Origin: Eledone cirrhosa
Taxonomy: Eukaryota
Direction of reading: 5' to 3'
Assembly (NCBI GenBank): GCA_964016885.1
Contig: OZ024761.1
Location: forward strand, 6,820,001 to 6,884,000
Length of the DNA stretch: 64,000 bases
Made by a program: the position numbers and the translations under genes. Positions 43,634 to 44,683 of this stretch are shown here, one piece after another. Within the stretch, counting starts at the first letter, position 1, and every line of letters starts with the position of its first letter. Under the pieces are notes generated by a model that did no database searches, had not been told where the DNA came from, and was given only the letters and a program-made list of their open reading frames with translations.

Positions 43634-44543
43634 GTTTGTTGTTTGTTTGTTCTTTAAAAAATATCAAAACTCCTTCGATAACAAAAAATATTTCAAGTAC
43701 AAGCAACTGTCGAGAAAATTTTCATTACAAACAAATGGCGATGTTTTTGCCTAGAGAGTTCCATGGAAGCAACAAGAGTTGTCTACCCTTGAAAGACCTT
43801 CTCTCTTTTCCTTATTCTATCTATATTTCTCCATGGCTTGGATGCTGCAGGCTCCCCCTCCCAGCTCGAGCTGGACTGGGGTGACGGCAAATAGCCAGAC
43901 TGAAAGACCATCTTCCCGTTCCACGGTGGTAAACCCCTCGTCTAGGATGTCACATGCAGTGACAACCTGGTGCAGTCTACGACCAACCCAGGATCTGCTG
44001 CACTTCGGGCTGAGGAGGGTAAACTCTCCAAATATCGGTCGTTATCCGACAGGTTTGCAATCGAGCCCCTAGCAGTGAAGACTACTAGTGTCCTTACAGT
44101 AGGGCTACGTCCCTACTCACCACCATAGGCGCTGAACTGGCTAGCCGCAGGTGTGAGCCTCGCGAAATGGAATGGGTCATCCAGCGCATCTCCTTCACCA
44201 TCCTCCGGGGAAACACCTTCTCTATTCTGTCGGCCAGGGCCGTGGGGTGGCCAGCGCATGGGACCCCACTTGCTGGTAATAGTGAGAGATGGGGGAGAGA
44301 CGGAGGCGATGACAGTGGGAGTTTGGCTCCTCTGTGTTCGGACCTGGGGTACGTTTGTGTATTTTCACCTGCGGGACTTACGTCAACCTTATTGAAGATG
44401 GACTTACATCAACCTTATTGAAGATATATCGGATGAATTTAAATCAGAACAAATTTGTTATCGTAAAGATCATCGTTATCTTTATTTCATACTATCTCTT
44501 CTTTTCTTTTACTTCTATCTTTCTCAATTTATATCATTTCTCT

Positions 44544-44683
44544 TTATTTTGTGCTGAGGTTTGACCCTTTGAACACTTTCTTGATTGCATTCAAAAAATC
44601 TTTCTCCGTTACTTCACGTCTTACTTTTCTGTCTCGGATAGCGAACATGGCAGCTTCTCTGCAAACGTTGCTTATATCAGCAC
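44544..44683 (-). CDS. Paralog C exon 12 ([46 protein letters not shown])
   Basis: Same TTGCAG acceptor context as copy A exon 12; TAA at 44546-44544. Confidence 0.85.

Follow-up and report, generated by a model that had tools for sequence, protein, structure and literature searches.

The Rpt1 locus

The window, by which we mean the whole 64,000-nucleotide stretch of octopus DNA that was analysed (G000:C22:6820001-6884000), carries Rpt1/PSMC2-related copies on its minus strand in the order C, B and A (Table 1). Copy A encodes a canonical Rpt1, identical to Octopus vulgaris Rpt1 at 399 of 434 residues. Copy C is an open frame of 443 amino acids in 12 exons with GT-AG introns, and its exon count and phases are those of copy A. 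Its 443 codons hold no stop and no frameshift, and its indels keep the frame, despite flanking introns that are up to 34% different. The motifs of an active AAA+ ATPase of the classical clade are all retained (Walker A, Walker B, sensor 1, both arginine fingers and the pore-1 aromatic residue), and the 16-residue insertion specific to C sits after the OB domain. Nucleotide identity between the two copies of exon 12 is 75.7%. Searches of the genome (3.0 Gb) with exons 8, 10 and 12 returned A and C and no further loci. By sequence, copy C belongs to the Rpt1/PSMC2 orthology group, as Rpt1 is the most similar of the Rpt subunits and the exon structure is held in common.

Table 1. Features of the Rpt1 copies and of the junction behind copy C (window coordinates unless stated otherwise)
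Feature	Position	Strand	Basis or remark
Copy A, canonical Rpt1/PSMC2, 12 exons, 435 aa, tail [10 protein letters not shown]	18728..37038	-	Alignment
44-bp satellite, 3' flank of A, 1.3 kb past the stop	16443..17454	.	Array comparison
Upstream region of A, other side of the junction, tail look-alike at 37955	37870..38060	-	Collinear with the upstream DNA of C
44-bp satellite behind B, likely the old 3' flank of C	38997..39741	.	Array comparison
Unit B, duplicating A's upstream DNA together with exon 1 (43633-43558) and some of intron 1	39750..44545	-	Self-alignment
3' UTR of C from co-opted upstream DNA	44458..44543	-	Spliced contig end and AATAAA
TAA stop of C	44544..44546	-	AA common to the duplicate; T in neither parent
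Junction zone, crossover within it	44545..44561	-	Codon-by-codon comparison
C exon 12	44544..44683	-	AAA lid helix (AAA_lid_3) and short tail KGSNLSTK*; best PDB matches Rpt1
C exon 11	52808..52904	-	Joined to exon 12 by splicing in run X4
C exon 10	53799..54001	-	Pore-2 loop, sensor 1, arginine fingers RSGR
C exon 9	60919..61006	-	Walker B IIFFDEID
C exon 8	62184..62348	-	Walker A GPPGTGKT, pore-1 KYVG
C exon 7	63271..63414	-	Carries the 16-residue insertion
C exons 1-6	Outside the window, G000:C22:6914019-6892920	-	Exon search and translation

The short tail and its transcript

The last exon of copy A (18885-18728, minus strand) ends in [16 protein letters not shown], whereas copy C ends in KGSNLSTK*; with the DFL landmark as the starting point, A has 23 further residues and C 15, so that C is 8 residues shorter. 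The conserved Rpt1 tail (of the TPRYMTYN type) is absent from C, and so is a Hydrophobic-Tyr-X (HbYX) carboxyl end, since C ends in STK; Rpt1 itself is also left out of the HbYX subunits in the relevant part of PMC6140342. Among homologues of A's exon 12, a tail resembling T-P-R/K-Y-x-x-x-N was found in 108 of the 120 matches listed, and the other 12 mostly have unrelated end letters and resemble mis-called fragments.

The stop codon of C lies at the edge of a duplication. Self-BLAST aligns 43231-44550 with 36607-37962 at 96.4%, and the first 1.07 kb or so of this duplicate (B against A's upstream DNA) shows 3 substitutions and one 7-bp indel; B and A are about 99.6% alike over 1 kb. Exact identity begins at 44545 = 37957, with the two A's of the stop, and the next codon falls at 44543 = 37955; beyond the stop, 21 of 21 bases equal A's upstream DNA. 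On the coding side, codons -6 and -5 are closer to A's tail (4/6) than to the upstream DNA (2/6), and the last four codons of C, the stop included, fit the A-run upstream of A better (9/12) than A's tail (6/12). The preliminary description, which had contrasted the two carboxyl ends and placed the stop of C at the point where the sequence switches to a duplicate of about 37955 and below, was accurate in both respects. However, because the T of the TAA is found in neither parent, the junction by itself did not create the stop.

The short tail of C is transcribed. One contig of run X4 (record 24) matches 44458-44684 without mismatch, with 88 letters below this T and 139 from the T upward; its loose end is C exon 11, so that it contains the exon 11-12 splice and then runs unspliced through the stop. 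A second X4 contig has exon 1, from either A or B, spliced to exon 2, and, as two of its contigs skip introns, X4, the second sample of the same study, was taken to be RNA. Record 24 ends at 44458, 23 nt past an AATAAA at 44486-44481; no other AATAAA lies less than 240 nt from the stop. Contigs of runs X1 and X2 span 44516-44850 and branch at 44545, as expected of a duplicate; with 30 letters on the low side, they fall below the 31-letter bar for bridging and were not counted as such. The read support covers C's junction rather than A's side, and all close-matching samples come from one study. Contig depth was 120 for C exon 12 and 309 for exons 1-2 of A/B, figures that do not rank expression, and by a rough measure the word depth of contigs from the shared region exceeds that of the contig unique to C by a factor of 1.6-1.9, which fits a region present twice. 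In run X5, from another species, there is depth at 44600-44734 and none at 44555-44599, where no contig is found among those listed. A junction without reads, or splicing to a further exon that restores a Tyr-containing tail, had been considered beforehand; instead, the X4 contig bridges the junction and continues unspliced past the stop, and no such exon was seen among the X4 contig ends listed, although a minor isoform may still exist. Copy C is not a pseudogene by the usual marks, as its frame and splice sites are intact and a transcript is present.

Origin of the junction

C's own upstream DNA (94200-94455 on the window scale) is collinear with both sides of A's boundary, with a score of 124 that was reached by none of 1000 dinucleotide shuffles; each side alone likewise gave 0/1000, and the C exon-12 side 78/1000. 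Since C's upstream DNA aligns across A's boundary, the arrangement at A is ancestral and the tail junction of C is derived, and the converse, with the position of B ancestral and A's junction new, was rejected on the same ground. When the last 21 coding and stop bases of A were slid along A's upstream DNA (ungapped), a single top position was obtained at 37955, with 14/21 matches among 1,938 positions; a 33-base version peaked at 37967, with 19/33 among 1,926 positions. The upstream region is A-rich, which helps, and neighbouring A-rich positions score 12-13. The junction was likely homology-guided, as it coincides with the stretch upstream of A that most resembles the tail.

Unit B contains a 2.1-kb insert in intron 1 (43231-41084); no B exons beyond exon 1 were found in the 204 kb searched, and at its far end B resembles A at 92% and then at 78% around microsatellites. 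The insert is flanked by a shared GAAA and includes a 180-bp palindrome (41547-41726), an imperfect one of 200 bp (42157-42354) and a short interspersed repeat.

The 44-bp satellite behind B bears on the number of events. Apart from one 72% match, this satellite occurs in the genome only in the two flanks listed in Table 1. Comparison of the array consensus sequences shows 5 differences in 44 positions, and each of the 16 units in the C flank has more than 2 differences from every one of the 14 units behind A, a divergence nearer to that of A and C than to that of A and B. The satellite can thus be regarded as an old marker of the Rpt1 3' flank, which speaks for a single patch over a deletion that reached a full next unit. 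In the simplest account of the sequence, one patch of A's 5' end would have replaced the tail of C together with about 1.3 kb of its flank, and the tail loss appears as a late step in a gene that was already much diverged. Of the fusion of exon 12 to the upstream region of the next array unit that had been proposed before, the joining to upstream DNA of an Rpt1 unit stands, and the joined state is derived; the deletion put forward as its cause fits less well than the patch.

The proposed course of events has three steps. Tandem duplication of Rpt1, visible in the window, would have been followed by divergence of C in patches, which is likewise visible, given that collinear A/C blocks range from 75% to 99% identity and that stretches of 92-99% lie amid others of 75-80%; gene conversion resisted by selection would be the simplest cause of this block pattern. 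Subsequently, a recently made copy of the 5' end of A, about 2.6 kb long and brought to its present 4.8 kb by an insert, would have replaced the tail of C and about 1.3 kb of flank, presumably in one homology-guided repair event. On its left, this copy ends at the best tail look-alike; on its right, it stops at a brief stretch of similarity to the 44-bp satellite, and both junctions can be read directly. Finally, a T specific to C would have completed the stop, and the copied AATAAA, 23 nt past which the contig ends, likely serves to end the C mRNA. A coding tail would thus have been lost through a chance likeness to the gene's own promoter region, and promoter DNA recruited as a 3' UTR.

Two other histories compete with the single patch, both of them rather doubtful. 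In one, a nonsense change in place had already created the stop, and the later rearrangement merely swapped the 3' UTR, the breakpoint having fallen there since the decayed tail resembles the upstream DNA. The T found in neither parent would be accounted for in this way, the in-frame sequence past the stop agrees with the RYMTYN* codons of A in 14 of 21 bases, exon 12 had already diverged by 24%, and the same route was taken by an Rpt4 paralog of this genome (see below). However, the better fit of the last four codons to the upstream A-run than to the tail is at odds with such an order, an in-place TAA would need two changes from CCA, and the bases past the stop are those of A's upstream DNA throughout (21/21) and also resemble C's own upstream copy. 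In the other history, of comparable standing, a three-unit array C-B-A suffered two deletions, one between the C tail and the B upstream region and one between B intron 1 and the B flank, and B was later rejuvenated by conversion. Conversion is indeed suggested by the A/C mosaic of 75-99% blocks, and a B whose distal end is just 78-92% like A would fit an older unit with later conversion, but this route requires an additional full duplication as well as two deletions, no other B exon was found in the 204 kb searched, and a single patch accounts for both junctions. That the junction, or B itself, was produced by misassembly is extremely improbable: the near-identity of B and A over 1 kb, the X1/X2 contigs one letter short of bridging and the single source study leave some room for it, but a spliced contig from a second sample crosses the junction without mismatch, and the word depth, a rough measure, is that of two copies.

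Divergence and selection on copy C

Rpt1 is among the most conserved eukaryotic proteins. In copy C, 301 of 425 aligned residues are identical to A and 287 of 424 to Octopus vulgaris Rpt1. When the 124 differences between A and C were polarised with two Octopus outgroups, 107 proved to be derived in C and 4 in A, with 13 ambiguous, and among 287 columns invariant in seven outgroup rows, C changes 62 and A changes 7. The OB domain and the lid are heavily altered, with 12 of 24 residues of exon 6 and 15 of 32 of exon 11 identical to A. In C exon 5 (L004:6593-6745), a Thr is replaced by Ala at the position aligned with T166 of yeast Rpt1, in a column that is otherwise invariant and corresponds to the Ubp6/USP14 activation loop; the yeast study of T166 in this loop, as far as its accessible text goes, used Lys rather than Ala at that site (10.1101/2021.07.16.452743).

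Whole-gene dN/dS between A and C is 1.36 (p 0.064), and it is 1.04 in unconverted exons. Exons within high-identity blocks carry 33 nonsynonymous against 2 synonymous differences (p 0.007, with a grouping chosen after seeing the data), and their pN of 0.066 is not significantly above the flanking intron divergence of 0.054 (p 0.18). These values are at most suggestive of positive selection on C. The alternation of near-identical blocks with diverged exons is reminiscent of the red and green opsins, in which divergence peaks in exon 5, a pattern described for duplicates subject to both conversion and selection (PMC3924837, in the part consulted); here, however, many exons are diverged, and the gene is an essential housekeeping ATPase.

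Single exons were used in searching for an ortholog of C elsewhere, and a diverged ortholog could escape such searches. When exon 12 of C was compared with longer proteins, 4 candidates came up but did not reach significance; a HMMER search of 1.84 billion representatives yielded 68 matches, the best at 68% identity, which is the ordinary AAA/Rpt level; and exon 8 gave 3,040 matches, the best 120 of which are at most 82% identical and no better than A. No ortholog of C was recognised among the matches listed. No description of an octopus Rpt paralog was found in the literature, searched mainly at abstract level and mostly outside subscription journals, and the accessible part of 10.64898/2026.09.09.750301, a work on plants, makes no mention of octopus.

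A tail-less Rpt4 paralog and other duplicated genes

Copy C is not the only altered proteasomal ATPase in this genome. A second tandem pair, which we take to be Rpt4/PSMC6, lies at G000:C2:77609766-77588526 and 77656989-77624888 (L039-L050). Both of its frames are intact (395 and 403 aa), with a dN/dS of 2.36 (p 0.0002). The parent ends in ESKLDYKPV* and the derived copy in KVAKKKLFVS*, 7 residues short, and the stop of the latter arose in place (AAG>TAG), with the 3' UTR still aligned and without rearrangement. The derived copy also has a repeat-extended N-terminus and changed pore-loop neighbourhoods. For Rpt2, Rpt3, Rpt5 and Rpt6, likewise named on the presumption that their motifs are diagnostic, one locus each was found, counts that are lower bounds. 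Tail losses by two routes could reflect selection or a shared release from constraint. The positions changed in both C and the Rpt4 paralog number 22 against 24 expected, i.e., there is no excess.

In partial genome searches, no co-duplicated alpha subunits, Rpn1 or JAB-domain subunits were seen; for the alpha subunits, the search covered about 12 loci and 5 N-terminal matches. On C9 (L051:1426-2184) lies an intronless 20S alpha subunit gene of 252 aa, presumably alpha7-like, which has no intron-bearing twin among the 12 loci fetched. A tandem pair of PCI genes, considered as a duplicated proteasome partner, was rejected upon its identification as eIF3e. The two genes, each of two exons and 14 kb apart (G000:C20:12092800-12113900; L063-L065), differ strongly in their N-terminal halves, and their last exons are nearly the same (95.7% nt). 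As eIF3e is duplicated likewise, tandem duplication with divergence may be a general tendency of this genome and not specific to the proteasome.

Possible function of the tail-less subunit

Copy C is like Rpt1/PSMC2 in its 12 exons, their phases, its ATPase motifs and its best PDB matches, and unlike it in the missing tail, the 16-residue insertion, the 62 changed invariant columns and the promoter-side 3' UTR. The gating role of the Rpt1 tail is known mainly from cryo-EM and from one-residue truncations in yeast.

That the Rpt1 tail docks and helps to open the gate, as the preliminary description had it, agrees with the text of PMC6140342 that could be consulted: in yeast cryo-EM structures, the Rpt1 and Rpt6 tails are docked only in open-gate states. 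In the same source, peptidase activity is robust in rpt1-delta1 alone and falls by nearly 80% in rpt1-delta1 rpt6-delta1, and in rpt1-delta1 rpt2-delta1 there is little defect, with assembly intermediates little altered (PMC4598862, in part). In human open-gate states, five tails are reported as inserted, with Rpt4 the exception (10.1101/419051, in the portion available). From these yeast and human data, the Rpt1 and Rpt4 tails, both lost here, appear to be the most dispensable, with the proviso that the yeast data concern one-residue truncations and the loss in C is of 8 residues. C can be likened to the yeast mutants in that the Rpt1 carboxyl end cannot dock in the alpha4-alpha5 pocket (PMC6140342 and PMC4598862, as far as consulted), but theirs is an engineered one-residue loss in a normal subunit, and that of C a natural loss in a widely changed one. 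The suggestion that the variant docks or gates differently is thus weakened, as the robust activity of rpt1-delta1 alone makes a modest effect likely.

It is reasonable to suppose that C, with its ATPase motifs kept, would hydrolyse ATP in the ring, and that the ring would stay on the 20S core through the HbYX tails of Rpt2, Rpt3 and Rpt5, for each of which one locus was found. In a ring that lacks the Rpt1 tail, the gate would depend for its opening on Rpt6 alone, probably a modest change. Hence the reading that we consider best, to which we assign a probability of about one half: C, an intact, transcribed and fast-evolving Rpt1 paralog, would have had its tail replaced by DNA from upstream of A and, likely together with the tail-less Rpt4 paralog, would serve as a swap-in subunit of a variant 19S base. 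Such a base would be held by the unchanged tails of Rpt2, Rpt3, Rpt5 and Rpt6, and the tail loss would be tolerated and would modulate gating. On the other hand, the 16-residue insertion and the OB and lid changes could block assembly of C. As a natural, transcribed, tail-less animal Rpt1 beside an independently tail-less Rpt4, the pair makes it possible to ask directly which of the tails are required for 26S function.

The nearest precedent is that of Drosophila, in which 12 of 33 proteasome subunit genes have testis-specific duplicates (PMC2995371, as excerpted). These include, as in the case of C, lineage-specific copies of 19S ATPases beside a conserved parent, although most of the fly duplicates are described as relocated and the octopus copies are tandem and mosaic through conversion. 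By analogy, a germline or other tissue-restricted role might be envisaged for C. If the swap-in reading is true, specialised proteasome ATPases would extend beyond flies to molluscs.

Among other views, one is that C is under relaxed constraint, i.e., transcribed, absent from proteasomes and drifting towards a pseudogene, with a neutral tail loss. A dN/dS near 1 in unconverted exons, overall values not significantly above 1 and 62 altered invariant columns are what drift would leave, and conversion from A alone could preserve the catalytic exons. Nevertheless, this is unlikely in view of the 443 uninterrupted codons with their in-frame indels amid strongly diverged introns, the 33:2 nonsynonymous excess in converted exons and the dN/dS of the Rpt4 paralog. 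A bolder extension of the swap-in reading, about as improbable as drift, envisages a second motor, in which Rpt1 and Rpt4, on either side of Rpt5, are exchanged for positively selected, tail-less paralogs and unfolding no longer depends fully on opening of the gate or on braking by USP14, with a germline or anti-parasite use; if true, nature would have tested the Rpt1/Rpt6 gating model in an animal.

Still less probable is a role off the 20S core, where C and the Rpt4 paralog might form a free base that unfolds proteins and does not degrade them, might modulate assembly, or might be decoys that divert parasite proteins directed against Rpt subunits. Two independent tail losses, accelerated amino-acid change and the OB-domain changes, including the Thr to Ala replacement, would suit it. 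However, the lost tails are the two least important for docking, the searches showed no duplicates of the HbYX subunits, and Rpt1 and Rpt4 are not neighbours in the ring (order as given in the consulted part of PMC4598862). The earlier proposal that the variant acts outside the 26S found no support in this analysis.

Repeats around the Rpt1 copies

A repeat of very high copy number, with a contig depth above 100,000, lies about 170 bp upstream of exon 1 in both B and A (43790-44352 and 37200-37770, respectively), and a related piece lies inverted upstream of C. A 72-bp satellite in intron 1 of A (33800-34900) recurs 2.6 kb upstream of C exon 1 and twice at 28-35 kb to the left of the window, and a similar unit is present in the eIF3e locus. 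Intronic satellites common to A and C (27998-29373, 20582-21977, 53065-53311) differ greatly in length: the array of a 28-bp unit occupies about 1.4 kb in A and 7.4 kb in C, and that of a 20-bp unit 1.4 kb and 0.25 kb, respectively. Introns 11 and 9 of C contain, at 45000-50900 and 55400-58800, decayed pieces and a GC-rich block that, from their translations, we take to be reverse-transcriptase-like and retroelement-like, respectively.
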